Below, one piece after another: positions 19,446-41,908 of a DNA stretch of 64,000 bases (the stretch's first letter is position 1; each line of letters opens with the position of its first letter). Under the pieces are notes generated by a model, which was given only the letters and a program-made list of their open reading frames with translations, did not search any database and was not told where the DNA came from. Source of the stretch: Escherichia phage JLBYU40; the sequence record NC_105514.1; one strand, 5' to 3'. A program made the translations under genes and the position numbers.

Positions 19446-19736
19446 TTAGTCCTCTGGATTATCATCCAGGAAATTTTTAATAGCTTCGTGCATAGTTTCT
19501 TTACGAAGCTGACGTCCAATCAGAATATGATTAGCTTCTACTCGACCATTAGGTAAGCGATCCGCCAGAACTACTACAGGAACTTGGCGTACGCCAAATT
19601 TCTGCATTAATTCTGTATTATCAGTCTCTTTATGGACTTCCAAATTATATTCATTGACTACTTTATCAAATACTGGCTCAAACATTTTGCAAGGATTGCA
19701 AGTAGAACCTTTCAATAGATATACTAATTTACTCAT
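19446..19736 (-). CDS. thioredoxin/glutaredoxin-like protein
   Basis: 96 aa; CNPC (CxxC) near N-terminus. Confidence 0.5.
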   Translation of the reverse strand: MSKLVYLLKGSTCNPCKMFEPVFDKVVNEYNLEVHKETDNTELMQKFGVRQVPVVVLADRLPNGRVEANHILIGRQLRKETMHEAIKNFLDDNPED

Positions 19737-20235: not shown

Positions 20236-20652
20236 TTAATCTACTGCATGTATAAATCTTTTCCTAACTAGATACATAGTTATTGGGTAAATTGAGTACA
20301 TAAGTATCGGGGAGAAAAGGGTGAAATACGCTGTAACTCCCCCAGCTAACATCAAAGGTATTAATGCTAGAGTAAGGGCCATAAGAATCATGCCGAATGA
20401 AACAGCCAAAGCTATGGATATGGGATTCTCTAGTTCCATCCATAACCAACAATATTTCGTATCTCTATGGCAATTGCATTTACAAACGCCGAATGAACCC
20501 ATAATTATATACTCTAGTCCGTGAATAACCTTTACTAATAAGCTATTTCGGGTAGTTAATGCAATGATAGTAAAGACTATCATTAAAACGAATACTACTA
20601 GACTTATTTTCCAGATACCTAGCAGCATCATAGTGAATAGTTCTGCAAACAT
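20236..20652 (-). CDS. multi-pass membrane protein
   Basis: 138 aa with about four hydrophobic helices. Confidence 0.45.
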   Translation of the reverse strand: MFAELFTMMLLGIWKISLVVFVLMIVFTIIALTTRNSLLVKVIHGLEYIIMGSFGVCKCNCHRDTKYCWLWMELENPISIALAVSFGMILMALTLALIPLMLAGGVTAYFTLFSPILMYSIYPITMYLVRKRFIHAVD

Positions 20653-20729
20653 GGCTTTCTCCTATCTTCAAAAATTATTAAAGCCCCCTTTGCCTAAAAA
20701 GGCGGGAATATTCCCGCCTCAGTTATTAA

Positions 20730-21143
20730 TTAAACTAGTTCGACATGACCGCCATCATAGGTACCACGTTTTATTTCGTCGTGATAATCTCCTGAAGCAT
20801 TCCAATCAGCACCAAAACGAAGTTTAATGCCTAGTTCTTTACCAGCTTGTTCAAAAGCCTTTTTAACTGCCCAAAATGCTTCTAAGTCATTCCAATCAAT
20901 TTTGCCATTAATGTATGGAGCAAAATCAAGGGCATCCCCAGTAATATGCTTGCTTTTACTAGGATCTTTTAAAAATGAAGTACCATTAGCAATATTCTGG
21001 GCACTTTGTGCTACTGTACGAATACCCTGTACGATCGTGAAATCATATGGAGATAATTCTAAAGCTCTACGAGCTACTTTTTGTAGCTCTGGCTTAACGG
21101 TAGCTAATTGTTTTTCGCTATTTTTACCAAATTTAAAACTCAT
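20730..21143 (-). CDS. lys: endolysin, likely L-alanyl-D-glutamate peptidase (T5 Lys-like)
   Basis: 137 aa; H..D...H-type zinc peptidase residues; immediately downstream of putative holin. Confidence 0.65.
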   Translation of the reverse strand: MSFKFGKNSEKQLATVKPELQKVARRALELSPYDFTIVQGIRTVAQSAQNIANGTSFLKDPSKSKHITGDALDFAPYINGKIDWNDLEAFWAVKKAFEQAGKELGIKLRFGADWNASGDYHDEIKRGTYDGGHVELV

Positions 21144-21796
21144 ATTGATCTACCTAAAGATCTCTGTTGTGGAGAACAGAGCTTTGTTAAATACTCGTTA
21201 AATTTCTCAGAATCGGCCGCATCTACAGGATTATCTTTCCAAGCAATACCAATATATCCAGCATAGATATTGTTTAGATTGAAATACGGACAAGTGTATA
21301 TGTAATTAAAAGTAACGTTCTTAAACGCAGGTATATTTAACCCCATGTATTTATTTACTTTTACACTTAAATCCGATGCGTAGTTAAAGCCCTCTAAGTG
21401 ACGTCTATATAGCTCAGACGTTTTATTTACCGCTTTATCGGCCAAGTCAGCCCTATCTAATTGCGCATTGCTTTCCCATGCAATAATGTTAGAATAATCA
21501 TTAATGGCATCGGGTTTATACTTGACGACAAAAACAGCATCCGCACCCGTTTGAGAAAAGAGTACCATGCTCTTTTCTCTAGCTACATTAGGAAAGTTAT
21601 CTATCCTTTGAGTTTGAACATCCTGTAGAACCGCAGACGTGGAGAAAGTCTTTAAGAATGACATCACCTCGCTAGTATTACTAACAAATAAGAAAATAAT
21701 GACAGCAACTAAGATAGTTAGCAGACGTTTAAGAAGCGATGCTGGATCTTTCGCTTCTTGGAGCAGTACCGTTAATAATTGTAAGAACTTTTCCAA
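21140..21796 (-). CDS. putative holin
   Basis: 218 aa with one N-terminal TM helix; 4-nt overlap with endolysin start. Confidence 0.45.
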   Translation of the reverse strand: MEKFLQLLTVLLQEAKDPASLLKRLLTILVAVIIFLFVSNTSEVMSFLKTFSTSAVLQDVQTQRIDNFPNVAREKSMVLFSQTGADAVFVVKYKPDAINDYSNIIAWESNAQLDRADLADKAVNKTSELYRRHLEGFNYASDLSVKVNKYMGLNIPAFKNVTFNYIYTCPYFNLNNIYAGYIGIAWKDNPVDAADSEKFNEYLTKLCSPQQRSLGRSI

Positions 21797-21952
21797 TTGT
21801 AACCTCCTCTAACCAGTACCATTATACTAATTTTGGAGGAAAATTACAATGTGTTTTTAAAGATCACTTCTGGAGCATAAAATTTTGTCGTTGTCAAGAA
21901 GAATTTTAGATAAAAGAAAAGCCAGGGTCGTTAAACCCTGGCTTAAAACTAC

Positions 21953-22552
21953 TTACTCTTCGTTGTACCCATCGAATTGAGGTAACTGGGCTTTATTATA
22001 TTGCTCAGATCGATATTTTGCCAAGATTTCAATACGCTTATGGATTTCTTTGCTATCTAGATAGATATTTTTGTTGTCTTTTACCATCTCGTCGATTTCA
22101 TCTATTGAGAAGAATGGATAGTAGACATCTAGCATCATATCTTCTACGAACTTGTTGTAAGATTCATAGGCTTTCTTGATTTCTTGACCTTTCTCACAGA
22201 ATCCGCCAGAGAACGTGTGTCCCATTAACGTAGCATGTGGATGTACTACCCATCCATGACAGGATAGGAAAATTGTGCAGTAAGCAGAAGCACTAGGACC
22301 AATCAGATGTCCTATAACTGTTCCACGGCAATTAGCAATTAAGTTAGATAACTGTGCAGCAGTATCAACATAACCACCCGGGCCATTGATCATCAGATTA
22401 ATTTCGTCGTCCTCATTTGCCTGCATAAGTACCATTGATAAATCACGGTATTCATCCGGCGGGCCTAATTCTTCATCAAAGAAAAAGGTATACTCATTAG
22501 ATTGGCGAATGGAGTGAAACAGGTTAGTCTTTTCTTCTTTTTTATTAGTCAT
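21953..22552 (-). CDS. ClpP-like serine peptidase
   Basis: 199 aa; INGPGG (cf ClpP INSPGG) and GPSASAY Ser-motif-like segment. Confidence 0.45.
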   Translation of the reverse strand: MTNKKEEKTNLFHSIRQSNEYTFFFDEELGPPDEYRDLSMVLMQANEDDEINLMINGPGGYVDTAAQLSNLIANCRGTVIGHLIGPSASAYCTIFLSCHGWVVHPHATLMGHTFSGGFCEKGQEIKKAYESYNKFVEDMMLDVYYPFFSIDEIDEMVKDNKNIYLDSKEIHKRIEILAKYRSEQYNKAQLPQFDGYNEE

Positions 22553-22564
22553 AGCGATCCTTGA

Positions 22565-23317
22565 TTATCCAACTAGTGGTTCTAGCTCTAAGTCACAGAA
22601 GTTATAAACTTCTAGTTTAAGGTTATTGATACCATCGAATTTATTAACTAATTCGTGAGTAATATATTTTGCAGGAATACCACTTTCAGATGGATGATCT
22701 GATTTAATAGTGAACTTCTGCTCAGCGGGTACTACATTTACTATCAAAGAATCCATATCTAAATGGTTTGTTTCTCTTAGTAACTCTCCTTCATTGGGGA
22801 ATCTAACATCTGTTATTACGGCGACGTCTGGGTCGTCTTTAGCGATGGATTGCTCCAGAATTATGAGCCAAATGCGTTCATGCACCAGCTGCCTTCCTAG
22901 CTCTGTTCCTACGAGCTGTAACATTTTTCTCGGAGAAATAAATAAACTATAAAGACCATCTTCTTTACTCTCTGAGATAAGTTGTTGAGGATTAAGATAT
23001 TTTTCCTCAAAAATAGGCCAAACGTACGAGAAGTCTTCAAACTTATCGATACCATACTTAACCCACACATCTCTGGCTCGCTCCAATTGAGATTGTGTGA
23101 CTGTAAACCATTGGTCAATCTCTTTTCCCTTGCGCTCTCCTAGAAACTCTGGAGTTACACCGAGGATTACGGATGCAAGTTCATAAACGGGCTTAGCAAA
23201 ACTATAACGACGAGAAAAACACGTTGGATACGTGTCATTACACCAATCGATAATTAATTTTGCAACGGTATCTTTTCCCGAACCAGCTTCACCATGTAAA
23301 CCGACTAATACTGACAT
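22565..23317 (-). CDS. dnk: deoxynucleoside monophosphate kinase
   Basis: 250 aa; P-loop GEAGSGKDT; T5-like position. Confidence 0.6.
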   Translation of the reverse strand: MSVLVGLHGEAGSGKDTVAKLIIDWCNDTYPTCFSRRYSFAKPVYELASVILGVTPEFLGERKGKEIDQWFTVTQSQLERARDVWVKYGIDKFEDFSYVWPIFEEKYLNPQQLISESKEDGLYSLFISPRKMLQLVGTELGRQLVHERIWLIILEQSIAKDDPDVAVITDVRFPNEGELLRETNHLDMDSLIVNVVPAEQKFTIKSDHPSESGIPAKYITHELVNKFDGINNLKLEVYNFCDLELEPLVG

Positions 23318-23670
23318 TAATCTTTCCTATTTGTAATGGGTGGATAGTAAACTAAGCAACGTTTTTCTTGTAAACCTTGACGATAGAAGCAGACCATACC
23401 AGTCAGTCGTGAAATGTAAGAGTAAACTGCTTCCTCACATTTTGCTTTTGCATTCCAATCTTTGTATGGTATAACAACTACTACGCCGTCTTCTCCATTT
23501 GTAGCTAATTTCTTTTCAAACCTAAAGTTAAAGCTACAAGGTTGAAGTCCTTTAGGCCAGTCTACATGAGCTTGCTTTAACTCATGAGATGGCTCTGGTT
23601 TTATTTCTTCTGCACAGCCTGTGATTGTGATTGCGGCTGCGAGCAGTATTCCAAGTTTCCAGTTAAACAT
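23317..23670 (-). CDS. lipoprotein, candidate o-spanin
   Basis: 117 aa; signal peptide ending ITGC (lipobox-like); start overlaps the upstream gene by 70 nt. Confidence 0.4.
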   Translation of the reverse strand: MFNWKLGILLAAAITITGCAEEIKPEPSHELKQAHVDWPKGLQPCSFNFRFEKKLATNGEDGVVVVIPYKDWNAKAKCEEAVYSYISRLTGMVCFYRQGLQEKRCLVYYPPITNRKD

Positions 23671-24050
23671 GCTAATCTTTCCTCGAACTCTTTATTCTGC
23701 TTTTTAGCAATTAATGTTACCAATCCAGGCTTTGCAGCGATAACATCTTGACGACTAAGAGCTTTATCTAGCTGCTTAATCTTTTTGTCTAGATCTGCTT
23801 GCGAAATATTATTCATTGTGAAATACTGATTCATTCTAGTCTCACGAAGTTCGCTTTCAGCTTTCACCTTGTTAAGGGAAGTCTCTAGAGAAGAAATCTT
23901 TTTAGTAGCTACCGCAAGATCTCCCGCCAAAGTCTCCACTTTATTTACTAAGTGATAAGCACCGAACCCGATGCCTATCGCTAGACCTGCTCCCAGGATA
24001 TACCACTTACCGTGCCATATTCCTGAAAGAAGTTTTTGTATCAAATCCAT
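23601..24050 (-). CDS. N-terminal-anchored coiled-coil protein, candidate i-spanin
   Basis: 149 aa; N-terminal TM then coiled-coil; overlapped Rz/Rz1-like arrangement. Confidence 0.4.
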   Translation of the reverse strand: MDLIQKLLSGIWHGKWYILGAGLAIGIGFGAYHLVNKVETLAGDLAVATKKISSLETSLNKVKAESELRETRMNQYFTMNNISQADLDKKIKQLDKALSRQDVIAAKPGLVTLIAKKQNKEFEERLACLTGNLEYCSQPQSQSQAVQKK

Positions 24051-28415: not shown

Positions 28416-28491
28416 TGGTAGTTAGTAGTGGATTTGAACCACTGTAGTCGCTCCGTATGAAGGAGGTGCATAACCACTCTGCCAACTAACT
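28416..28491 (-). tRNA. tRNA (anticodon CAT; Met, fMet or Ile2)
   Basis: hand-folded: 7-bp acceptor AGTTAGT/ACTAACT, T-arm, encoded CCA, anticodon loop TTCATAC. Confidence 0.55.
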
Positions 28492-28587
28492 GTTATGTTT
28501 TACTAGACTAAGTAAGTATTCTTTATACTCTTTAGACCAATTAGCTTTTTTAAACTTTCCTGGACGCATAGTCTTAATTCCTAAATT

Positions 28588-28664
28588 TGGTACTCCGGGA
28601 GGGATTTAAACCCCCGATCTCTCGGTTATCAGCCGAGTGCTTTAGATCGCTAAGCTACCGAAGC
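28588..28664 (-). tRNA. tRNA-Ile (GAT)
   Basis: acceptor with two G-U pairs, T-arm, CCA, anticodon loop CTGATAA. Confidence 0.55.
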
Positions 28665-28665
28665 A

Positions 28666-28893
28666 TTAACATTTTACAGCAGAACGTTTGCCATTTCTAG
28701 GTGCACCTGGAAGTCGTGCACGTTCTGCCATTCTTCGCTTAATCTTTGAGATATCTTCTAGTGTTTGTTCTTCAGGCTTAATACCTGAAACACTACACCA
28801 CTGATTACCATCCCATGCGGTAATGATCATAACACCGTTACTCATGATCTTTTCTGTGAAAGTAATCCTCATTATAGCAACTCGTCTAAGCAA
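28666..28893 (-). CDS. hypothetical protein
   Basis: 75 aa ORF. Confidence 0.35.
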   Translation of the reverse strand: MLRRVAIMRITFTEKIMSNGVMIITAWDGNQWCSVSGIKPEEQTLEDISKIKRRMAERARLPGAPRNGKRSAVKC

Positions 28894-29165
28894 GAGGTAT
28901 ATTTAAGTTTACCATCTTTATCTACTTTGATTTCGACTTCCGCTCGTGGTACTTGACGAACTACACCATGAATCATCTTATAGTTAATAGACTTAGACGG
29001 TTCATAATCTTTTGTGAAGACTTGCTTAATCGTTACTACCTTGTACCCATCACGCGGTGTTAACACAACAACTTGATCACCTTCTTTGATCTTCCAAGAG
29101 CTAGGAAATTCATAGGTATAGCGTTGACCACCAGTTTGGAACACAACAGAAAGATAACGTTTCAT
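28872..29165 (-). CDS. hypothetical protein
   Basis: 97 aa; downstream of early promoter 29195-29223. Confidence 0.45.
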   Translation of the reverse strand: MKRYLSVVFQTGGQRYTYEFPSSWKIKEGDQVVVLTPRDGYKVVTIKQVFTKDYEPSKSINYKMIHGVVRQVPRAEVEIKVDKDGKLKYTSCLDELL

Positions 29166-29194
29166 TTGGTTTCCCTCTCATTAATTTATATAAA

Positions 29195-29223
29195 TATTAT
29201 AACAAGAAATAAGAGAGAAAGCA
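29195..29223 (-). promoter_or_regulatory. early promoter
   Basis: -35 TTGCTT, 17-bp spacer, -10 TATAAT; leader ATATAAATTAATGAGAGGG. Confidence 0.55.
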
Positions 29224-29232
29224 AATGAATTT

Positions 29233-29427
29233 TTAATAAAGTTTAGTCACTTCATAAACTATACTACGAGATTCTTTATTTCGTTCTATTAAATTAGTAT
29301 ATGCTTTTTCAGCTTCATTTTTAGTATTAAAGTCTATAACGTGGGAGGTATTCGCTCTATTTGATTGACTATACCAGATAACTACTAACAGTTTAAACAT
29401 AATAGTCCTTAAATTGGTGCTGGGCAC
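29233..29427 (-). CDS. hypothetical protein (start uncertain)
   Basis: 64 aa ORF; listed start overlaps a tRNA 3' end, so the internal Met near 29400 is more likely. Confidence 0.3.
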   Translation of the reverse strand: MPSTNLRTIMFKLLVVIWYSQSNRANTSHVIDFNTKNEAEKAYTNLIERNKESRSIVYEVTKLY

Positions 29428-29501
29428 AGGATTCGAACCTGCAGCGGGATTACTCCTCCTGATTACAAATCAGGTGCATTCAACCATTCTGCCAACCCAG
29501 C
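29415..29501 (-). tRNA. type II tRNA, anticodon unresolved (canonical register TGT)
   Basis: perfect acceptor, GGTTCGAATCC T-arm, CCA, ~15-nt variable arm; anticodon stem CCTGA/TCAGG with loop TTTGTAA. Confidence 0.45.
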
Positions 29502-29666
29502 AGAACCCGTTATTTCAACGGGATTTCTTTTTCAATAACAGGAGACTTATCAGTCATAACTGCCATTGCCATTTGTTGTAGAAATTCAAAGGTGAAGGCT
29601 ACACGTTCTTCACCAATCTCTACTTCTACACGTTTCTTTTGTTTGTCGATCTTGACTTTTAGGTTA

Positions 29667-29918
29667 TCAGCCATTAGATAGTACAGTACTGGTAGTTGGC
29701 AATACTACAGATGAAGCAACAGTATTTAAATGCTTTCTCCAGTCTAGGTTAAATTGTTTTCGAAACTCTTCATAAGGTTCTTCTGGATAAAAGCTAAAAC
29801 CTCCTTTCTCATCATTCAGGATAACAGTGCCGTCAGTTTGTTCGTATGCTCGGTATGTTTCTCCAATAACAATAACTCGTTTATCAGTACTTTTATTACG
29901 GAACTCAAAAACGTGCAT
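29667..29918 (-). CDS. hypothetical protein
   Basis: 83 aa ORF. Confidence 0.4.
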   Translation of the reverse strand: MHVFEFRNKSTDKRVIVIGETYRAYEQTDGTVILNDEKGGFSFYPEEPYEEFRKQFNLDWRKHLNTVASSVVLPTTSTVLSNG

Positions 29919-29934
29919 AACGTTTCCTTAAAGT

Positions 29935-30010
29935 TGGAGCGGCTAGAGGGAATCGAACCCTACTCAGCGAGGCTTGGAAGGCCTGCGGCACAACCCGTAT
30001 GCTTAACCGC
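29935..30010 (-). tRNA. tRNA-Gly (TCC)
   Basis: acceptor GCGGTTA/TAGCCGC, T-arm GGTTCGATTCC, CCA, anticodon loop CTTCCAA. Confidence 0.55.
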
Positions 30011-30018
30011 TTATTATT

Positions 30019-30094
30019 TGGCTGGAGAAGGAGGAATCGAACCTACCATTAACGGAGTCAAAGGCCGTTGTGCTAACCGTTACACTACTCTCCA
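30019..30094 (-). tRNA. tRNA-Gln (TTG)
   Basis: U1-A72 acceptor, anticodon loop CTTTGAC, CCA. Confidence 0.55.
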
Positions 30095-30100
30095 ATTATT

Positions 30101-30176
30101 TGGCTGGGATGCCACGGATCGAACGTGGAACCTTCGGAGTCAGAGGCCGACGATCTGCCAATTGATCTACATCCCA
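30101..30176 (-). tRNA. tRNA-Gln (CTG)
   Basis: U1-A72 acceptor, anticodon loop CTCTGAC, CCA; close paralog of the previous tRNA. Confidence 0.55.
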
Positions 30177-30188
30177 ATAATTTTTATT

Positions 30189-30383
30189 CTACGGAAAAAT
30201 TGTTGTTGGCTCAGATTCTTCCAAACGTTTGCCTTCATGATCTACTCGAATAACTCCGCATCCCTCGCAAATCACAACAGCACCGTAGCCTTCTTTAACT
30301 TCAGCTTCTGTAATCAAACCAGAAAGATCACCAGTATCTCTGCCCCACATATCAATGGAGCATTGTTTGCAGAAATCAGCCAT
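30189..30383 (-). CDS. hypothetical Cys-containing small protein
   Basis: 64 aa ORF. Confidence 0.4.
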   Translation of the reverse strand: MADFCKQCSIDMWGRDTGDLSGLITEAEVKEGYGAVVICEGCGVIRVDHEGKRLEESEPTTIFP

Positions 30384-30408
30384 ATTTTATTTCCTATTTA
30401 AGTTAATT

Positions 30409-30485
30409 TGGGGTGGCTAGTGGAATTCGAATCCACATAGGCCTGATTCACAATCAGGATCATTAACCAATTATGATATAGCCAC
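30409..30485 (-). tRNA. tRNA-His (GTG)
   Basis: perfect acceptor, D, anticodon (loop TTGTGAA) and T stems; discriminator C; CCA. Confidence 0.65.
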
Positions 30486-30853
30486 AATTGAAAACTCGCA
30501 GGGTTAGCGAAACCATCCTCAATTAGCATGTTCTAGAATACTAATCAAGTTATCTCCTATTGCACGCAGCTCAAGACGAGTACGAATTTTCAATTGTGGC
30601 GGCTCTCCGAAACTCTTCTACTCTAGCCTTAGCAGCTTACTCCCGAACGCATGTCGGGAAAGTCTTACTAAGAGCATCAAATAGCACCGTTACACTTTGA
30701 GCCATTGATGTATCAAGGAATAGAAGGACTTGAACCTTCATGAGTTAGACCATTTAACTCAACCGCTTTTAAGGTATATTTCTAGGAGTGGATGTTCCTA
30801 GTAAACCTATTGGGCAGTCCCGTCTACCAATTCCGGCATATTCCAAGAATTAT

Positions 30854-31105
30854 TTAAAACTTATAGCCTTCAGGAACCTTATCTTTAACACCGTCATACT
30901 TAGCCTGAATGTAGTAGTCTGGTACATGATCTTTTGGCAGATTTTTATTAGTATCATGAACCTCAGCTCTAGCTTCTTCTTCAGAATCAAAGCCACGATA
31001 CCAGATTTCACCGCCCCACCCACGTTCACTTTCAGTATACTTAACAATATGTTTCATAAGGTTTTCCTTATAAGTTGGAGGAAGGTAATGGAGTCGAACC
31101 ATCAC
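30854..31105 (-). CDS. hypothetical protein
   Basis: 83 aa ORF between tRNA blocks. Confidence 0.45.
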   Translation of the reverse strand: MMVRLHYLPPTYKENLMKHIVKYTESERGWGGEIWYRGFDSEEEARAEVHDTNKNLPKDHVPDYYIQAKYDGVKDKVPEGYKF

Positions 31106-31165
31106 CGTATCACTACAGCGGGCTAGTTTTCAAGACTAGTTGCGTACCACTACGCCCTACCTTCC
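31076..31165 (-). tRNA. tRNA-Ser (TGA), type II
   Basis: acceptor GGAAGGT/ACCTTCC, anticodon loop CTTGAAA, long variable arm, CCA. Confidence 0.55.
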
Positions 31166-31172
31166 ATTTGTT

Positions 31173-31263
31173 TGGCGGAAGAGGAGAGATTTGAACTCTC
31201 AAGCCGTTTTACCAGTCAGCCACTTTCCAAGCGGTTTTCGTCGCCAATTCGATTTGCTCTTCC
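31173..31263 (-). tRNA. tRNA-Ser (GGA), type II
   Basis: perfect acceptor, T-arm GAGAG-TTCAAAT-CTCTC, CCA, long variable arm; 4-bp anticodon stem with one G-U, loop TTGGAAA. Confidence 0.45.
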
Positions 31264-31299
31264 AATAATAAGATGATGCCTCTATCACACCAGGCAGTT

Positions 31300-31372
31300 A
31301 CGCCTCGCTGGGATTCGAACCCATTAAAACAGCTCAACCGAGATAGTAGGTTTAGTTTACTCTGACCATCAA
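31300..31372 (-). other. tRNA-like element (T-arm only)
   Basis: canonical T-arm (rc of CTGGGATTCGAACCC) in a slot between two tRNAs, but no complementary acceptor or anticodon stem found. Confidence 0.2.
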
Positions 31373-31375
31373 ATT

Positions 31376-31452
31376 TGGTGCGTGACAAGGGATTCGAACC
31401 CTCAAAACCCGACTTCTAAGGACGGTATGTATGCCAATTCCATCAATCACGC
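31376..31452 (-). tRNA. tRNA (anticodon TAG, Leu-type; short variable loop)
   Basis: good acceptor, T-arm, CCA; anticodon stem has one U-U mismatch, loop CTTAGAA. Confidence 0.4.
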
Positions 31453-31457
31453 GTATT

Positions 31458-31531
31458 TGGTGGAGAAAGAGGGAGTTGAACCCTCGTCTTCTGCGTGCAA
31501 AGCAGATGTTCTACCATTAAACTATATCCCC
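31458..31531 (-). tRNA. tRNA-Ala (TGC)
   Basis: G3-U70 pair in acceptor, anticodon stem TCTGC/GCAGA, loop TTTGCAC, CCA. Confidence 0.6.
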
Positions 31532-31769
31532 AAATTCTTTAGTTTACTAAGGCTATTAGCTCGGCGTAACTACAGCACCTTCGCTTCGAGCGGAAGTAAC
31601 CGCGTCATCTCGCAAACCCGATACACTATTCAGTTGCCGCTGAATCTAGTGGACTAATCTAGAACCTCTCCCAAATCGTAGGGATCGTGCTTTTTGGCAG
31701 CCAGTCCTAGGTCGAGCTAATACCTTAGTGAACTATGATGAGGATTTCTCCTCATCAATTTATATAAAT

Positions 31770-31798
31770 ATTATAACAAGAAATTAAGCATCAAGCAA
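31770..31798 (-). promoter_or_regulatory. early promoter driving a noncoding leader plus tRNA block
   Basis: -35 TTGCTT, 17-bp spacer, -10 TATAAT; about 200 nt without a plausible ORF before tRNA-Ala. Confidence 0.5.
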
Positions 31799-31816
31799 AT
31801 GAGTTTTTCTTGAAAT

Positions 31817-31895
31817 TGGTAGATCGCCTGGGACTCGAACCCAGAACCTTCCGATTAAAAGTCGGATGCTACTAAACCTATTGAGCTAGCGATCT
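31817..31895 (-). tRNA. tRNA-Lys (TTT)
   Basis: perfect acceptor, anticodon stem TCCGA/TCGGA, loop CTTTTAA, CCA. Confidence 0.6.
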
Positions 31896-32084
31896 ATTAA
31901 TAACTATTGTATACTTCTTTAATAGAGTGAACTTTCAAGTAAGGGTGATTAGTACTAAACTCTATCATTACTTCATCCCAATTTTTACCATAATGAGCAA
32001 GTAAGGATTTTGATGTATTCTTACCTAAACGTTTGTCACTTACTACTAATCGAAATACTTTCATTTCGAAATCCTCTATTAAAG

Positions 32085-32162
32085 TGGAAGCGGGTGCAGG
32101 AATCGAACCTACCTCTTTCTAGCTTATGAGACTAGCGATCTCTACCAGAGATCTAACCCGCA
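32085..32162 (-). tRNA. tRNA (anticodon CAT; Met, fMet or Ile2)
   Basis: unpaired 1-72 (U-U), D-stem GATC/GATC, anticodon loop CTCATAA, CCA. Confidence 0.45.
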
Positions 32163-32168
32163 ATTGTT

Positions 32169-32246
32169 TGGTCTCCGTGGGAGGATTTGAACCCCCGACC
32201 CTATCGCCCCAAACGAAACGCTCTGGCCAAACTGAGCTACACGGAG
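32169..32246 (-). tRNA. tRNA-Pro (TGG)
   Basis: perfect acceptor, D-arm GCTC/GAGC, anticodon loop TTTGGGG (stem with one U-U), CCA. Confidence 0.5.
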
Positions 32247-32619
32247 AATATTATTTCTTTAACCACAGCAAAGATAAGCCCAGCATACTAAAACCGCTAA
32301 CTAATCCGATACATTTTTCTTCTATAGTAAAAGTATCTAGATTAAATGCTGTTATAGCTATTGGCATACACCATAATGCCATAAAAACTTGAGATATCTT
32401 GTGTTTCATTTTGCTTTCCTTCTCTTCACTTTATAAAATATATTATACAGATAATAAAGCAGAATAGCAAATGAATTTTTAATAAATTTACTTATTGTGT
32501 AGGCCACCTGGAGGCTACCAACCCCACGGCTGACAAAGAAGTTTGCGAGACCTCTCTTAAATGCCAGAATAGACCCGCCGGTCTATCGGAACCTACATAA
32601 TAAGTAAACTTTATAGTGT

Positions 32620-32740
32620 CATTCTAGACAGGACTCGAACCTGTTATCACTTGTGCGGACTTACGAGAACCATTCTTTCACTCGAATCGAACGAGCTTCT
32701 GCCCCCGCCAAGCTGGTTTCCCCATCAACCACGCTAGAAT
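32620..32740 (-). other. oversized tRNA-like element (~120 nt)
   Basis: canonical T-arm (rc of ACAGGACTCGAACCTGT) but the only complementary acceptor partner lies ~115 nt away; no CCA. Confidence 0.2.
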
Positions 32741-32862
32741 GTTTGATTGTTTTCAGTGCAAGAGTCCGAGTCTTGGACACGACCGCTTCGCAAGTACATA
32801 GGCGGCTTATCATGAGTCAGCACTTCCGAATTGCTAGCTTCGTGTTCTGCACTGAAATTTTG

Positions 32863-33210
32863 TTAATTTAATAGTAAAGTACGATCTACTTCACCATTAA
32901 TTGTTCGGCATTCTTCTGGGATTGCTGGTGTAGTCTTATATTCCCACCATTCAGAACCATCATATTCACCACGTTCTAACCAAGTTCCATCGGTAAACCA
33001 TACGTTACCATAAAGCAATTGTCCGCCGAAACCAGAATCATATTTAAAGTCTAGATTATCTAGAAAATCTTCAATATCTTTTTCTGTATAACCTACGGGT
33101 AATACCCAAACTTCTTTATCCCCATAATAACCGAATTCTATCTTAATACACTTAACTTCAGAATTAGTATTCTTTAGGGCAAGTAACAATTCTTCTTTAG
33201 CATTAATCAT
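32863..33210 (-). CDS. hypothetical acidic protein
   Basis: 115 aa ORF. Confidence 0.45.
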   Translation of the reverse strand: MINAKEELLLALKNTNSEVKCIKIEFGYYGDKEVWVLPVGYTEKDIEDFLDNLDFKYDSGFGGQLLYGNVWFTDGTWLERGEYDGSEWWEYKTTPAIPEECRTINGEVDRTLLLN

Positions 33211-33236
33211 AGCGTATTTCTCGTGCTAGTTTAGTT

Positions 33237-33313
33237 TGGCGCGACCGATGGGATTCGAACCCACATTCTCTCCCGTGACAGGGGAGTACCATTACCAAGC
33301 CAGCCCCGGTCGC
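33237..33313 (-). tRNA. tRNA-Asp (GTC)
   Basis: perfect acceptor, anticodon stem CTCCC/GGGAG, loop CTGTCAC, CCA. Confidence 0.65.
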
Positions 33314-33322
33314 ATAATTCAT

Positions 33323-33508
33323 TTACTCAGCTTTGAGTTTTTCAATAGCTGCATTAAGTTCCTTAAGAAACTCTTTTCGTACATTAAGACGATTAAGACT
33401 TACTAGTATATCATGTTTAAGTTCTTCGATGTATTTCTTCTCAACTTCAATATTGTTGATAGTGCTATCACGATGAACTTCTAGCTGTGCAATTACGTTC
33501 TTGGACAT
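33323..33508 (-). CDS. hypothetical coiled-coil protein
   Basis: 61 aa ORF. Confidence 0.35.
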   Translation of the reverse strand: MSKNVIAQLEVHRDSTINNIEVEKKYIEELKHDILVSLNRLNVRKEFLKELNAAIEKLKAE

Positions 33509-33610
33509 GCTTGTTTCCTCAGTTATTAATGAAAATGGTATCTGTGGCTGAATTCGATGTCAGCAATGATAGCTGGTTGGCTACCGGTTTACTTAACTCT
33601 ACACAGAATT

Positions 33611-33688
33611 TGGCGGTTCCTGCTGGATTCGAACCAGCAACCCTCAACTTAACAAGATGCCGCTCTAACCAATTAGAGCTAAGGAACC
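33611..33688 (-). tRNA. tRNA-Asn (GTT)
   Basis: perfect acceptor and T-arm, CCA; anticodon loop TTGTTAA but stem has two mismatches. Confidence 0.45.
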
Positions 33689-34183
33689 ATATAAGTCAGA
33701 ACTAGAGTTAATACGTTCTAGATATTTACTAAGATCTCTAGAATTTATACTAAACCACTCATGTTCTTTTAAATCTTTGAAATACTGGTGAATTAGTTTT
33801 TCACCTTTTCGTTTGTCAAACCAAAAAGACCAATGCTCTAACTTATAATCCCTATAAGGGGAATAAGTCTGATATTGAGCTAATCTCTCTTTTGGATTTT
33901 GACTCATACCTATTTTATACTGATTTTTCCATGCAGGATTACTAATACAGTATACAAAACCTTCAGAAATAGGAAGTTTATTTTCCTGCTTAAACTTTAT
34001 AAAGGAAAGTGCAGCAAGTTTTCTCGAATACATAGTATTTGTATTCTTTTTGGTATTACCATTGGTTCCTGAAAGATTTATATATTCTTCCATAAATCTT
34101 TGGATTAGTTCTGCGGTTATATAGAAGGGCTCATTAGTAACAATACCTTTCTTTACCAAACTATCAAAAACTCTTGTATGCAC
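33665..34183 (-). CDS. T5orf172-domain (GIY-YIG-like) protein
   Basis: 172 aa; GFVYCISNP...YKIGMSQNPKERLAQY resembles the T5orf172 motif; 3' end overlaps tRNA-Asn by ~24 nt. Confidence 0.55.
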   Translation of the reverse strand: MHTRVFDSLVKKGIVTNEPFYITAELIQRFMEEYINLSGTNGNTKKNTNTMYSRKLAALSFIKFKQENKLPISEGFVYCISNPAWKNQYKIGMSQNPKERLAQYQTYSPYRDYKLEHWSFWFDKRKGEKLIHQYFKDLKEHEWFSINSRDLSKYLERINSSSDLYGSLALIG

Positions 34184-34204
34184 TACTTCTTTCCTTTAGT
34201 AATT

Positions 34205-34280
34205 TGGACGACCGCATGAGATTTGAACTCACATAAAAAGGATTTGCAATCCTTCGCCTAAGCCATTCAGCCAACGGTCG
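34205..34280 (-). tRNA. tRNA-Cys (GCA)
   Basis: acceptor with terminal G-U, anticodon stem AAGGA/TCCTT, loop TTGCAAA, CCA. Confidence 0.55.
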
Positions 34281-34357
34281 GTTTATCTTGTTCTGTCATG
34301 TTGCTTCTCCAGTTCAATTTATGTAATTATTATACAGAACTTTTGGAAACTAAGCAA

Positions 34358-34627
34358 CTACATTTTTAAGAATTTGATGCCTTTCTTTTTCTTCTTATAT
34401 TTCCACGTTAATGGATTCTGCCGATTGTGAACGCTTGAGATCTTCGTCTCGTCAAAGTTCTTCAATATCATGTAATCACAAGATAATTGTTCTAATGGAA
34501 TGTGATCACCGTCAAAAGCATATACATAAGGCTGTTGACTAACACGATAATGATAGACTTTGTTAATTCTACGTTTTAGCGACTTATCAGCGCAGTAAAT
34601 AAAGAAGTTTTCAGGATGCATCAGCAT
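34358..34627 (-). CDS. hypothetical basic protein
   Basis: 89 aa ORF. Confidence 0.4.
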   Translation of the reverse strand: MLMHPENFFIYCADKSLKRRINKVYHYRVSQQPYVYAFDGDHIPLEQLSCDYMILKNFDETKISSVHNRQNPLTWKYKKKKKGIKFLKM

Positions 34628-34638
34628 CTCCTTCGATT

Positions 34639-34713
34639 TGGTGCACCCTGTTCGTATCGAACGAACCTCTCAAGCTCTTCAGGCAAGCGCTAATCCATCT
34701 CAGCTAAAGGTGC
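34639..34713 (-). tRNA. tRNA, probably Phe (GAA)
   Basis: good acceptor, T-arm, CCA; anticodon loop CTGAAGA but stem has two U-U mismatches. Confidence 0.4.
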
Positions 34714-34719
34714 AAATTT

Positions 34720-34796
34720 TGGCAAACCTACTAGGACTCGAACCTAGACCGTACGGTTTTGGAGACCGACATGCTGTCCAGTAACACTCTAGGAAT
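34720..34796 (-). tRNA. tRNA-Trp (CCA)
   Basis: anticodon arm CGGTCTCCAAAACCG as in bacterial tRNA-Trp; perfect T-arm; acceptor has two U-U mismatches; CCA. Confidence 0.5.
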
Positions 34797-34804
34797 GCAG
34801 AAAT

Positions 34805-34881
34805 TGGCGTCCTGTGCGGGGATCGAACCCGCAAATCCTACCTTGAAAGGGTAGTGACTTTACCAGTTTGTCTAACAGGAC
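34805..34881 (-). tRNA. tRNA-Glu (TTC)
   Basis: perfect acceptor, anticodon stem CTACC/GGTAG, loop CTTTCAA, CCA. Confidence 0.65.
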
Positions 34882-34888
34882 TTAAATT

Positions 34889-34979
34889 TGGTGTTGGATG
34901 ATGGAGTCGAACCACCCGAGACCCTTCCGAGTCGGCAGATTTACAGTCTGCTTCGCTACCTCTACGATACTAATCCAAC
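34889..34979 (-). tRNA. tRNA-Tyr (GTA), type II
   Basis: anticodon arm GCAGACTGTAAATCTGC, long variable arm, CCA. Confidence 0.65.
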
Positions 34980-35107
34980 ATATTTAAAAGTATTCAAATA
35001 CTAGTTTAAACACTTTTAAATATGTTTCCGAATTAGATAACTATTATATCAAGTTTTAAGGCACTGAGCAAGTCAAATTTTAAAGAACTTGCTCAGTGCT
35101 GTATTAG

Positions 35108-35383
35108 TTAGTCGAACTTAGGAGTGACAGTTAAGGAGAACGGAAGTTCGAAAACTTCTTCGCCCTCATTACTAACGGTAACTACACGACCTTTAAGTTC
35201 AGACATTAAAATATCAATATCAGCTTTTGCATCTGGAGCCATGCCAGCTTCAATACATTTAGCTTTAACTTCCGGTAAAAGCTCTACGTTATAGAGATAG
35301 AGCCACTCAATCTCACCTTCCCAGTCTTCCCAGGATTTGCAGATTGCACTTTCAATACCAGTTGCTACAACACGATTTTGCAT
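35108..35383 (-). CDS. hypothetical acidic protein
   Basis: 91 aa ORF with early promoter upstream. Confidence 0.45.
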   Translation of the reverse strand: MQNRVVATGIESAICKSWEDWEGEIEWLYLYNVELLPEVKAKCIEAGMAPDAKADIDILMSELKGRVVTVSNEGEEVFELPFSLTVTPKFD

Positions 35384-35473
35384 TAATTAACTCCTTCATC
35401 AATTTATATAACTATTATACCAGAAATTTAAAGTAAAAGGCAAGTACATTTTTAAAAATTCTGTTTGGAGGAG

Positions 35474-35680
35474 CTAAACTCCAGATTTTTCGGCCAAGTC
35501 TAGACTAATAAGAGTTATAGCCATAATTGCTGCACCGTGTTCTTTTTCTCCGGTGTTTTTAGCAGAGTCTATAATATCCTTAATCTGTTCGTAATAACTT
35601 TTTACTTCTTGTTCAATGCCTGCCTCGGCTATCATGCCTTTAGCCATGAATCGTTGCATGGTAATTTCAGGATTAGCCAT
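35474..35680 (-). CDS. hypothetical protein
   Basis: 68 aa ORF. Confidence 0.4.
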   Translation of the reverse strand: MANPEITMQRFMAKGMIAEAGIEQEVKSYYEQIKDIIDSAKNTGEKEHGAAIMAITLISLDLAEKSGV

Positions 35681-35855
35681 GTTGTTTCTCCAGTTTCATT
35701 TTTAATAGTTTACAGATGAAATCAACGTCTTCATCTGTGCCTAAGTCTCTATCCTCAAGGGTCGCCTTGAAGTTTTTCGTCAATTCCATGAGGATGACTT
35801 CCCTAGAACGACGTGTTGGCGGAGGTGGATGTCTATACATCTTATTTCCTTAATT

Positions 35856-35932
35856 TGGTAGGGGTGGTGGGATTCGAACCCACAAAACCTGAATTTTAAG
35901 TCCAGTACCTATGCCAATTCGATTACACCCCC
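35856..35932 (-). tRNA. tRNA (anticodon TAA, Leu-type; short variable loop)
   Basis: acceptor GGGGGTG/CACCCCT, anticodon stem CTGGA/TTCAG, loop CTTAAAA, CCA. Confidence 0.45.
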
Positions 35933-36148
35933 GTGTAATTTAGTCAATTACTTTTGAAGCTTCAAGGTAGTCGATATAGTGTACGTTTTCTACCGTAATC
36001 ATATAATCTGCCACTTTATCCATAGCTTGGGCTTCAGAGGTAGCTCTGGCTAACCTATATCCTTTTTTATATTCATCAGAGTATTCTCTATCTTGAATAA
36101 ACACAACATAAACTACGTATAATTCCACTTGTAACCCCCTAATTAAGT

Positions 36149-36226
36149 TGGTGGCTCCCCGAGGATTCGAACCTACGTACCTTCCGGTTATGAGCCGGGT
36201 GCTCATACCATATGAGCTTGAGAACC
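36149..36226 (-). tRNA. tRNA (anticodon CAT; Met, fMet or Ile2)
   Basis: acceptor with two G-U pairs, D-arm GCTC/GAGC, anticodon loop CTCATAA, CCA. Confidence 0.5.
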
Positions 36227-36232
36227 AAAATC

Positions 36233-36321
36233 TGGCGGAAGAAGTGGGAATCGAACCCACAAGGCTATATTTCAAACCGACAGATTAGCAATCTGCTGCA
36301 ATACCGTTATGCTATTCTTCC
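36233..36321 (-). tRNA. tRNA-Ser (GCT), type II
   Basis: perfect acceptor, anticodon stem GCAGA/TCTGT, loop TTGCTAA, long variable arm, CCA. Confidence 0.6.
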
Positions 36322-36342
36322 GAATTTATAAGATATATTATA

Positions 36343-36862
36343 TTAGAAATTTAGCTTCATAGCAAGAAAATTTTTCAAGTTTTCGGTAGACATCTCATCT
36401 ACATCTACAGGAGAAACAAAGCCGTTTAATTTTCTAGCAAATTTTTCACCATCGGGATCATTGTCTCCAACAGCTACCAATTTAAAAGGTAGTAATTTCA
36501 GTTGCTTTAATAACGCTTTTCCTGGAGAAGAACCCAACATTGCTAGGGCTGGATAACCAGCGTTATGTAACGCAACTGCCTTAAATACAGATTCAGCAAT
36601 CAATACTACTTTTTCATCTCCATTGAGAGTTTCTAGTCCCCATACACACTGGGTAGTAGAATAAGTAAAGTATTTAGCTTCAAAGGGGCACTTACCATGA
36701 CCTTTTGGAGCAGAAGGATTATAAGTTTGATAGCCCCTCAACATCCCAGAGAAGTCATACAACGGGACTGTTAGCCATCCTTCTGGACTTAACCAGCAAT
36801 GATATTTATCTGTATCAAATCCCCTAGATAAGAGGTGCTGTGTTAGCTCATCAACATTCATA
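36343..36862 (-). CDS. Toprim-domain protein
   Basis: 173 aa from the Met at 36862 beside an early promoter; IAES...VAVGDNDPDGEKFA resembles the Toprim E + DxD signature. Confidence 0.45.
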
Positions 36863-37036
36863 TTTGGTTCCTCTCTCAAATTTATAGATATATTATACAG
36901 AGAATTTAGCATTCAAGCAATCAAATTTTTTAACTTTTTAGAGGAAAATCATAGGGCGCTTAAGGGTAACAGATAAGTGGTGAGGACCAAAATTTGTGAC
37001 CCCACTAAAAATCCGGGGGCAATTTTTAAAGACCCC

Positions 37037-37065
37037 TTGACATTTTCGCTGGGGTAGTGTAAAGT
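37037..37065 (+). promoter_or_regulatory. sigma70-type promoter of the plus-strand island
   Basis: perfect -35 TTGACA (37037-37042), 17-bp spacer, -10 TAAAGT preceded by TG; unlike the phage early promoter family. Confidence 0.5.
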
Positions 37066-37127
37066 ATATGTTATGGATGAGTGATCAAAGAGACACACAT
37101 TTTCTATATACTAGGAGGTGTCAAAAA

Positions 37128-38114
37128 ATGACAGAAGAAGTAGCTAAGAGTCCTGAGACCGTCGCTAGCGTTGCAGCAGAACTGCACCGTCACGAGGAAT
37201 CAGATAAGAAAAAGTGGGAGAAGGTCAGAGCCTACGAAGAAAAACATCGTGAACACGATGATGAAGAAGATGACGATGATGAACATTGTCATAAATATGG
37301 AAAACATAAAATGCAAGAACCAGTAAACGTATTCACTAGTGGCTTCCCTGGCCTACTGGGTGGTTACCCAGCAAACGCAGGTGCTTTCGGTGGTGAAGGT
37401 ATGGGACTATTCGGAGCTATCCTAATCGGTGCTCTATTAACAGGTGGATTCGGTGGTTTCGGTGGATTCGGTGGACGTGGTGTAGTTGGTGAAGGTACCG
37501 CAGTTGATGCAGTACTTCAGAACCAAGATACCGCTAGTATTCTAGCAGCTATTAACACTACTCGTACAGAAGCTAATCAGGGTACTGGGGCTGTGTTAAG
37601 CGCAGTTAACAATGGTTTTAGCCAGACATCCCAAAACCAGAGCCGTGATACTCAGTCTGTACTAACTACGATTTATGGTACAGGTGCTAATCTGTCTAAT
37701 CAGATCTGCCAGGAAACTCGCAACGTTATTCAGGGTCAGTTCGATCTTTCTCGCCAGATTGATCAATCTTTCGCAGCTAACCAGATAGCTCGTGCACAAG
37801 ATAAATTTGATTCTGCACAGATCGCTTTCCAGCAGACTTTACAAACTAATAACCAGTTTGCCGCTGTTCAGGCTCAGATGTGTGCTAACCAGAACTCTCT
37901 GGAACGTCAGATCGCTGAATGTTGCTGTGAACTTCAGACTGCGATCGCTGGTGTAACTACTGCGCGTATCCAGGATGAGTTAGATGCATGTCGCCTACGT
38001 GAGGCAATCGCTGCGGGTAATGGTGCTAACGATCAGGTAATTAATCAAATCGCTGTAAGTCTTGGTGCAATCACTCAGACTCTGGCTGGTCTGCAGGCTA
38101 AACTGCCGGCTTAA
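37128..38114 (+). CDS. glycine-zipper membrane protein with acidic/His-rich N-terminus and Q/N-rich C-terminus
   Basis: 328 aa from ATG 37128 (RBS TAGGAGGTG); GLFGAILIGALLTGGFGGFGGFGG segment; CCC motif; GC visibly above flanks. Confidence 0.55.
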   Translation: MTEEVAKSPETVASVAAELHRHEESDKKKWEKVRAYEEKHREHDDEEDDDDEHCHKYGKHKMQEPVNVFTSGFPGLLGGYPANAGAFGGEGMGLFGAILIGALLTGGFGGFGGFGGRGVVGEGTAVDAVLQNQDTASILAAINTTRTEANQGTGAVLSAVNNGFSQTSQNQSRDTQSVLTTIYGTGANLSNQICQETRNVIQGQFDLSRQIDQSFAANQIARAQDKFDSAQIAFQQTLQTNNQFAAVQAQMCANQNSLERQIAECCCELQTAIAGVTTARIQDELDACRLREAIAAGNGANDQVINQIAVSLGAITQTLAGLQAKLPA

Positions 38115-38135
38115 TATTAAGGGGAGGAGCCCATT

Positions 38136-38552
38136 ATGAGTAAATATGGTTTTGTAAATAACGGACTTAATCAAAGTATGGGCTCCCAGCAGCCCATTCC
38201 GGGTCTGGATAACCCCTACTTACAACAATTGCAACAGCGTTTAGCAGAAGCGCAACAGATGCAGCAACAACTCCAGCAAAACCCTGGAAGTGTGAGTCCT
38301 ATGCAAATGATGCAGCAAATGAGCGGGCAGTCGCAAATGCCTCAACAAATGCAGCAACAGGTGCCTCAGCAGCAAGTTCAGCAACAAACCCAACAACCGC
38401 AGGTTTCTGCGGAAGGACAGGCAGTACTAGCCCTTTTCGAAGACTTCGCAAAGACAGAGGATGGGAAACAGCTTGTATCACTTATGGGTAAGTTTAATAG
38501 CTTCTGCCAAAGCCAGGTTGCAAAAGCTCAAAATAGTGGTAATAACTCCTAA
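38136..38552 (+). CDS. glutamine-rich low-complexity protein
   Basis: 138 aa; RBS GGGGAGGAG; long Q/M/P-rich stretch. Confidence 0.5.
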   Translation: MSKYGFVNNGLNQSMGSQQPIPGLDNPYLQQLQQRLAEAQQMQQQLQQNPGSVSPMQMMQQMSGQSQMPQQMQQQVPQQQVQQQTQQPQVSAEGQAVLALFEDFAKTEDGKQLVSLMGKFNSFCQSQVAKAQNSGNNS

Positions 38553-38561
38553 GGAGGAATT

Positions 38562-38756
38562 ATGTGTTGCAGAAAATCTGTTTCGTGCTGCCCAATGCCT
38601 GTAGCACGTTGTTGCTCTCCAGCAATGTTTACGCAAATACCGGCGTTCAATCCGTTTGCCTTTAAGCCTACTCTTATCCTGCCCCCTAGAGTAGATTTTC
38701 AGTCAAGATTGGCCTCCCGTATGGGTAGTTGCTGTAACAAGAGTATATGGTTCTAA
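38562..38756 (+). CDS. small Cys-rich protein
   Basis: 64 aa; RBS AAGGAGG; four CC doublets. Confidence 0.45.
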   Translation: MCCRKSVSCCPMPVARCCSPAMFTQIPAFNPFAFKPTLILPPRVDFQSRLASRMGSCCNKSIWF

Positions 38757-38769
38757 GGAACCAAACAAT

Positions 38770-38810
38770 AAAGCCCCTAGTCGAAAGACTTAGGGGCTTT
38801 TCTTTTATCT
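38770..38810 (+). terminator. Rho-independent terminator of the plus-strand island
   Basis: ~11-bp GC-rich stem with GAAA loop followed by TTTTCTTTTATCTT. Confidence 0.6.
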
Positions 38811-38851
38811 TAAATACAGAAAAGCCCTGCGCTCTCTAGGAAACGCAGGGC
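38811..38851 (-). terminator. Rho-independent terminator for the SPFH gene
   Basis: 9-bp stem AGCCCTGCG/CGCAGGGCT with a T-run on the minus strand. Confidence 0.55.
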
Positions 38852-38876
38852 TTATTTCAGATGTTACATGCGGGTA

Positions 38877-39824: not shown

Positions 39825-39858
39825 ATATTTCCTTTGTTTTAGTTACAGTTAATAAAAT

Positions 39859-41440: not shown

Positions 41441-41908
41441 TTAAGTTTTAGTGACAACAGGTTTATAAAACGTATGTCCCTTAATCTTAGTTGTTTTCTT
41501 AAACTTCTTTGTCCAGTAAGGTTTATCTTTACCACTATGGAAGTATAGTGCTCCATGTGTAGGATCTTGTGGTAAATCAACGTAGTATATCACTCTAGCT
41601 AAATTCTTAGCGGTTTGCCAAGCCTCATCAGTTTTATCAACTTTTGGTCTCTTAGATACCCAAGAGAACTGGTTAGACTGATATACTACTTTACAGTAGG
41701 AATCTGGGAATTTACCGGAGTTTACACGGTTTTTAGTAACATGTGCAATCGCCGTCATTCCCTTTATGCCCTCACCACGACTTTCGAAATAGATATTTTT
41801 AGCAATGCAATCTATTTCTTTTGCATCGTGCGATGCCTGACTACTAAAGCTGAAGGTAAGGGCAGCTACTAAAAGCAAAGCTGCCTTCATTCTTTTTACT
41901 ACTGCCAA
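41441..41908 (-). CDS. secreted cell-wall hydrolase (SleB-like)
   Basis: 155 aa; signal peptide; IAHVTKNRV...FPDSYCKVVYQSNQFSW resembles the SleB hydrolase core. Confidence 0.5.
   Translation of the reverse strand: MAVVKRMKAALLLVAALTFSFSSQASHDAKEIDCIAKNIYFESRGEGIKGMTAIAHVTKNRVNSGKFPDSYCKVVYQSNQFSWVSKRPKVDKTDEAWQTAKNLARVIYYVDLPQDPTHGALYFHSGKDKPYWTKKFKKTTKIKGHTFYKPVVTKT

Follow-up and report, generated by a model that had tools for sequence, protein, structure and literature searches.

The lysis locus of Escherichia phage JLBYU40 is probably an ordinary T5-like one, with a ClpP-fold peptidase gene as a neighbour by descent

Phage lambda lyses its host by a three-step logic, in which a holin is followed by an endolysin and then by a spanin of two components, one an inner-membrane protein and the other an outer-membrane lipoprotein; the lambda holin has three transmembrane domains and the lambda endolysin is a transglycosylase, and in phage T4 the endolysin is a lysozyme. 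The lambda genes (S-R-Rz/Rz1) are contiguous, in a single late cassette in which Rz1 is embedded, and in T4 the two spanin genes are separate and lie away from the genes of the holin and the endolysin (PMC6139136). The T4 spanins, PseT.3 and PseT.2, complement lambda Rz/Rz1 (PMC6139136). For T5, a 70-bp overlap of the spanin genes has been reported, and the pair constitutes the 'T5' overlapped spanin family (PMC6139136, Kongari 2018). Here we describe the corresponding region, positions 20236-24050, of a 64,000-nucleotide stretch of Escherichia phage JLBYU40 (NC_105514.1), the whole of which is called the window in the following. An earlier reading of the letters alone, the original prediction, had described this region as a split lysis cassette with a ClpP-like protease inside.

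We conclude, with a probability of roughly 0.88, that the region is an ordinary T5-like lysis locus made of two minus-strand units, in which the gene for a deoxynucleoside monophosphate kinase (dNMP kinase; gene dnk) and the ClpP-like gene are neighbours of the lysis genes by descent. Every open reading frame that the original prediction had named, in 20236-24050 and at 41441-41908, is present there on the minus strand, and the identities it had proposed (holin, endolysin, ClpP-like peptidase, dNMP kinase, overlapped o-/i-spanins and SleB-like hydrolase) were all borne out by matches in Pfam, PHROG and PDB. The 3815-nt region shares 98.7% identity with Klebsiella phage KPP2018 and 98-99% with many sequenced phages; it is matched by 452 phage records, nearly all of them from T5-like phages of Salmonella, Escherichia and Klebsiella, and in 430 of these records the match extends over 80% or more of the query. 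The possibility that the open reading frames arose by chance was rejected on their conservation in more than 430 genomes.

The gene order in 20236-24050 is that of T5.039 to T5.045 and recurs in the RefSeq record of phage phiLLS and in the T5 reference genome (NC_005859), and the proteins of the region are 86.6-99.3% identical to their T5 counterparts. This identity, together with the shared order, assigns the window to a Tequintavirus-like (T5-like) phage, and a tRNA cluster at 28.4-40.5 kb fits the assignment. The likeness to T5 extends to the strand, the gene overlaps, the TTG start of the holin gene and the places of the terminators and of the promoter. The two loci differ in that T5 carries hegF, an HNH homing endonuclease gene, between the i-spanin gene and an upstream 232-residue gene, whereas in the window no such gene intervenes and these two overlap by 44 nt (24007-24050); the spanins, at 87-88% identity, are the proteins that have diverged most from T5.

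The first of the two units would be an early operon that begins upstream of the 232-residue gene, ends at an intrinsic terminator at 21919..21944 and yields the i-spanin, the o-spanin, the dNMP kinase and the ClpP-fold serine peptidase. Within it, the stop codon of the o-spanin gene overlaps the start of dnk by 1 nt (TTAATG) and only 12 nt separate dnk from the ClpP-like gene, and because of these junctions we assign the spanin genes, dnk and clp to one tightly packed operon. The terminator that closes it lies directly after the ClpP-like gene and has an 11-bp stem with 6 GC pairs and a T-run (folding energy -18.5 kcal/mol, z -5.5); a terminator is annotated at the same place in T5. The second unit would have its own promoter and would hold the gene of a holin of the T4 T type, translationally coupled to that of the soluble endolysin EndoT5, and then a terminator and a membrane protein gene. 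A putative sigma-70-type promoter, recognized by consensus match only (TTGTAA-17-TATAAT, 10/12 matches), stands before the holin gene at 21821..21849, and T5 annotates a promoter at the corresponding place. A further terminator hairpin follows the endolysin gene at 20696..20720 (GAGGCGGGA-AUAU-UCCCGCCUU and then a U run; -16.4 kcal/mol, z -2.5), again at a position where T5 annotates a terminator. Since the strong terminator and the promoter separate them from the ClpP-like gene, the holin and endolysin genes would form a small transcription unit of their own.

The same plan is found in a metagenomic relative (L005/L006) whose ClpP-like protein is 39% identical to that of the window, and whose genes run in the order i-spanin, o-spanin, DNMK, CLP, Phage_holin_T, M15 peptidase, membrane protein. 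In this relative the position of the terminator after the ClpP-like gene is likewise occupied, and TTGTAA-16-TATAAT precedes the holin gene. Because order, terminator and promoter all recur at such a distance, the split is an old and stable feature, a fixed ancestral layout of the family in which holin and endolysin form a separately controlled unit. The split that the original prediction had noticed is thus a real arrangement, but it is the ancestral one of this family, and in T4, too, the spanin genes lie apart from those of the holin and endolysin (PMC6139136). Likewise, the presence of a ClpP-like gene between lysis genes, which had been called unusual, proved to be the constant layout in T5 and its relatives.

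The further suggestion that the ClpP-like gene belongs functionally inside the lysis cassette was not supported, both for the terminator and promoter that come before the holin gene and for the surroundings of its homologues elsewhere. In Barbavirus (beside phoH and dam), in Pakpunavirus and in a Schitoviridae phage, the homologues sit among early or DNA-metabolism genes and do not adjoin lysis genes. The dnk gene shares the conserved position of the ClpP-like gene and has no plausible lysis role; the synteny is therefore explained by descent, and we conclude that both genes are neighbours by descent and not components of lysis.

The lysis proteins themselves are readily recognized. The holin gene (21140..21796) encodes a 218-residue homologue of T5.041 (gene C1), with 95.9% identity, that matches Phage_holin_T (PF11031) over residues 3-217 with 379.3 bits (cut-off 22.2; E 8e-114). 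This protein has one hydrophobic segment (about residues 20-39), a predicted transmembrane domain, after which comes a large periplasmic C-terminal domain containing Cys169 and Cys207; residues 57-217 align with the solved periplasmic chains of T4 holin T (6PXE, 6PX4 and 6PSK; E 3e-16), and the protein falls in the same family as T4 t. Translation starts at TTG, as in T5, behind a GAGGAGG Shine-Dalgarno sequence. An antiholin of the RI type was not seen in the locus, although no search was aimed at one.

The endolysin gene (20730..21143) is adjacent and coupled to the holin gene, its start codon overlapping the holin stop (ATGA), whereas in T4 neither the holin gene nor the endolysin gene lies near those of the spanins. 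Its 137-residue product is EndoT5, an L-alanoyl-D-glutamate peptidase of family M15 and, in this, different from the T4 enzyme; it matches PDB 2MXZ/8P3A, with E 1.3e-90 over residues 1-137 for 2MXZ (T5 L-alanyl-D-glutamate peptidase), and is 99.3% identical to T5 Lys, although the Pfam model Peptidase_M15_4 scores 23.2, under its cut-off of 25. The protein carries His66, Asp73, Asp130 and His133, which we take to have the roles known from the EndoT5 literature (metal-binding His/Asp/His). Neither a hydrophobic segment nor a signal or anchor sequence was found in the endolysin, which would therefore depend on a large-hole holin.

The spanins are encoded by a pair of overlapping genes. The i-spanin gene (23601..24050) encodes 149 residues, is a homologue of T5.045 (86.6% identity) and matches PHROG 739, 'Rz-like spanin' (E 6e-38). 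A hydrophobic stretch, YILGAGLAIGIGFGAYHLV (KD19 1.55), at about residues 17-35 would anchor the N-terminus in the membrane, and residues 37-64 have hydrophobic residues at 8/8 a/d heptad positions, which by this crude home-made test points to a periplasmic coiled coil. Near the C-terminus are Cys128 and Cys136, both of them retained in a homologue with only 30% identity.

The o-spanin gene (23317..23670) encodes a 117-residue homologue of T5.044 (88% identity), a predicted outer-membrane lipoprotein precursor that matches PHROG 812, 'Rz-like spanin' (E 2e-29). Lipoboxes follow the pattern [LVI][ASTVI][GAS]C, and retention in the inner membrane is governed by the +2 Asp rule. The lipobox that the lipoprotein assignment of the original prediction called for is present at the sequence level as ITGC at residues 16-19, with Cys19 and with Ala at +2, so without an inner-membrane retention signal there. 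Four more periplasmic cysteines (45, 78, 94 and 105) are found in the o-spanin, and the periplasmic cysteines of the two proteins could probably join them through disulfide bonds.

The two spanin genes share 70 nt, read in different frames, and an overlap of this length is the one reported for T5, whereas the genes of T4 are separate (PMC6139136). The T5 record itself annotates T5.044 and T5.045 as 'Rz-like spanin' and likens them to T4 PseT.2/PseT.3, and a tblastn search with the o-spanin gave weak matches (26-27% identity) in T4-size phages, one of them labelled 'outer membrane lipoprotein Rz1'. We found no report that the T5 pair complements lambda Rz/Rz1. Pfam and NCBIfam searches with the spanins and with the 138-residue membrane protein encoded downstream of the endolysin returned nothing useful, and PF26831 (Phage_T4_Spanin), the family to which a distant relative's o-spanin is assigned, did not match the window o-spanin in the local Pfam. 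Taken by its sequence features, the window pair is a two-component spanin. The o-spanin gene is unannotated in many deposited T5-like genomes, that of vB_Sen-E22, for example, listing the i-spanin alone, and several of the tblastn matches of the o-spanin fall under the annotation 'none' or 'i-spanin'.

Judged by characterised homologues, lysis would proceed as follows. The holin would build up in the inner membrane and, on triggering, form large holes; the cytoplasmic L-alanoyl-D-glutamate peptidase would pass through these holes and cut the murein; and the spanin complex, in which the coiled-coil i-spanin anchored in the inner membrane is bound to the lipoprotein o-spanin of the outer membrane, with disulfides probably joining the two, would be released from the murein mesh and fuse the inner and outer membranes. 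These are the three steps known from lambda, and the T4 pathway is alike; compared with lambda, however, the window spanin genes lie upstream in another operon, overlap where the lambda ones are embedded, and are followed by two unrelated genes before the holin.

The ClpP-like gene (21953..22552) encodes a 199-residue ClpP-fold protein, the homologue of T5.042, that matches Pfam CLP_protease with 33.6 bits (cut-off 20.2). Against the NCBIfam models of its better-known relatives it scores far below threshold, with 16.9 bits for TIGR00493 (canonical ClpP equivalog; cut-off 308.6) and 40.1 bits for NF045542 (ClpP-related head maturation protease; cut-off 120; E 3e-10). An AlphaFold model built with 14 sequences (pLDDT 82.8) has the fold of bacterial ClpP (MEROPS S14): in Foldseek, the top PDB matches are all ClpP, with TM-scores of 0.63-0.65 at 16-23% identity, while predicted phage proteins resemble the model more closely (0.76-0.85). 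A profile search of 1.84 billion representatives gave at least 527 proteins of this family, counted as cluster representatives, at E <= 1e-30. The ClpP-like protein is thus a member of a large, separate and phage-specific branch of the ClpP fold.

Within this branch, Ser89 is found in 166/166 and His112 in 165/166 aligned members; both align with the catalytic residues of ClpP, and HMMER and MAFFT alignments alike place Asp159 opposite the ClpP catalytic Asp. The protein is probably an active Ser-His(-Asp) peptidase. Its N-terminal 19 residues are short, variable and of low pLDDT, and a counterpart of the axial hairpin or of helix A is not visible there. Residues Y62, F82, I90, F112 and L114 of E. 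coli ClpP, which we take to be those of the ClpX/ClpA docking pocket, align with M54, N74, H82, V102 and H104, although at 16-22% identity this is an indication only. The protein would differ from bacterial ClpP in a divergent N-terminal region, in polar docking-pocket positions and in a shifted acidic triad position, and canonical docking on ClpX or ClpA is improbable. Because the N-terminus is poorly modelled and the docking-pocket positions seem divergent, the database name 'ATP-dependent' (T5.042 is listed as 'ATP-dependent protease') is unsupported.

Some variation in the ClpP-like protein and its surroundings is seen in Vibrio phage D252 (L007 3399-4361), where the protein is 320 residues long with a long acidic C-terminal tail, and where a 171-residue protein that combines a transmembrane segment with a coiled coil is encoded between dnk and clp. 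As the D252 ClpP-like protein occupies the place expected for the holin, a ClpP-holin fusion in Vibrio T5-like phages was considered; it was rejected, as the C-terminal extension of the D252 protein is acidic and of low complexity and has no hydrophobic segment.

Several observations weigh against the conclusion that this is an ordinary lysis locus in which a serine peptidase gene is a neighbour by descent. The ClpP-like gene adjoins lysis genes throughout Demerecviridae, and in D252 it overlaps the start codon of the endolysin gene, with no T-type holin between them. We infer promoter and terminator activity, and the lysis functions, from the sequence and from comparison with T5, T4 and lambda. 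In addition, the Ser-His-Asp triad to which the original prediction had tied the ClpP-like assignment is matched in two of its residues by the invariant Ser89 and His112; the acidic position (D/E) conserved in 153/166 relatives is Asn162 here, and because of this the third residue is uncertain, with Asp159 as the candidate. Members of the T5 subgroup have Asn at 162 and Asp or Glu at 159 (22067-22078 in the window), and a few members of the family have neither; the shift from 162 to 159 may represent a migrated third triad residue.

Two other roles for the ClpP-fold protein are unlikely, yet each has some evidence in its favour. The first is that of a virion-associated or morphogenetic protease, a second enzyme for head or tail processing. 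The best outside relatives are indeed ClpP-related head maturation proteases (phrog_1684, E 1e-20; NF045542, E 3e-10), and the BF23 homologue, ORF45, was detected in purified virions, its function being given as 'currently unknown' (PMC10644984); this paper contains the sole comment that our literature searches for T5.042 or for phage ClpP function returned, and no study of either was found. However, the score of 40 bits lies well under the NF045542 cut-off of 120, the gene is in the early region and far from the structural genes, the low intensity of the virion signal could reflect carry-over, and in T5-like phages the capsid protein is processed by a prohead protease of its own (PMC10644984).

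The second is that of a true ATP-dependent ClpP, which would dock on host ClpX/ClpA or mix with host ClpP and so redirect proteolysis. The length of the protein, close to that of mature ClpP, the approximately 160 columns aligned with solved ClpP at a root-mean-square deviation of about 2.5 A, and the passing of the Pfam CLP_protease threshold are what one would expect of such an enzyme. The TIGR00493 score (16.9 bits vs 308.6) and the N-terminal 19 residues, divergent and without visible axial hairpin or helix A, argue against it, as do the pocket positions described above, within the limits given there, and we consider this role improbable as well.

A different question is whether the lysis cassette has a further member. 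The 138-residue membrane protein encoded downstream of the endolysin gene (20236..20652) is a homologue of T5.039 and belongs to PHROG 5944 (unknown function). It has hydrophobic segments at about residues 16-34, 80-98 and 100-118, T5.039 being annotated 'contains four transmembrane domains'; a 32%-identical homologue is encoded at the same position in the metagenomic relative. A loop cysteine cluster, CKCNCHRDTKYC, at residues 57-68 (20449-20484 in the window), is absent from that homologue. Between the endolysin terminator and the start of the membrane protein gene, no promoter-like site was found, and T5 annotates none; expression of the gene is therefore probably due to read-through from the lysis unit. 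This arrangement and the position kept in the distant relative would suit a lysis regulator, either an antiholin or a second holin; but no similarity to holin or antiholin families was found in Pfam, PHROGs or NCBIfam, and in D252 the gene directly after the endolysin is instead that of a thioredoxin, so that such a role seems quite improbable.

Very unlikely, too, is a reading in which the ClpP-fold peptidase acts in the cytoplasm either to adjust when lysis occurs or to clear away, as needed before lysis, some factor of the host or the phage; in that case, a large phage ClpP-fold branch would work without the canonical features for docking on Clp ATPases. About as unlikely is the proposal that the peptidase is part of the lysis programme itself, setting the timing for example by degrading or processing the cytoplasmic N-terminus of the holin, a holin antagonist or a spanin, which would account for its lasting position between the lysis genes: the retention of the spanin-dnk-clp-holin-endolysin block at 39% ClpP-like identity and the direct overlap with the endolysin start codon in D252 speak for it, but the strong terminator and new promoter that recur in the distant relative, the lack of any signal peptide or transmembrane domain found in the protein, the homologues of other phage families away from lysis genes, and the equally conserved position of dnk speak against it.

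Among the remaining features, the dNMP kinase gene, dnk (22565..23317), encodes a 250-residue homologue of T5.043, 98% identical to T5 Dnk, that matches Pfam DNMK (PF21448; 44.4 bits, cut-off 27.1; E 1.9e-11) and PHROG 139. A GCGC motif inside this gene (23132-23135) is kept together with its flanks; T5 annotates a major single-strand interruption (nick) site there (T5 22336/22337).

A second wall hydrolase is encoded at 41441..41908 (minus strand), in the early region and approximately 20 kb from the lysis genes. This 155-residue protein matches PF07486 (Hydrolase_2) over the full domain with 89.5 bits (cut-off 27; E 2.4e-25) and PHROG 938, endolysin; the equivalog model of spore SleB, TIGR02869, gives 50.6 against a cut-off of 236.5. 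With a signal-peptide-like N-terminus, MAVVKRMKAALLLVAALTFSFSSQA, it is predicted to be a second, secreted cell-wall hydrolase, unlinked to the lysis region. Papers on T5-like phages name it SleB or second endolysin (PMC3326045, PMC11664485).

A small thioredoxin-like protein (Pfam Thioredoxin_3 and Thioredoxin) is encoded at 19446-19736 (minus strand), two genes downstream of the lysis unit, and T5 has the same (T5.037). The tRNA cluster is of the T5 type and extends over 28416-40507 on the minus strand; ARAGORN counts 22 genes in it and Rfam 24, the latter adding two weak matches at 36152-36226 and 40436-40507. The Rfam scan of the window returned tRNAs only, none of them within 20236-24050.

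The arrangement described here is already known. It stands in the RefSeq annotation of T5 and in the annotations of hundreds of its relatives, many T5-like RefSeq records among them, is covered by the spanin census of Kongari et al. 2018, and is also documented in the genome papers of AKFV33 and OSYSP (PMC3326045, PMC11664485) and in the Shivani announcement; the layout as such has little discovery value. The spanin locus is useful as an annotation check, many GenBank records of T5-like phages omitting the overlapped o-spanin. Some further value of the locus lies in the ClpP-like family, which is large, confined to phages and marked by an invariant Ser-His pair.

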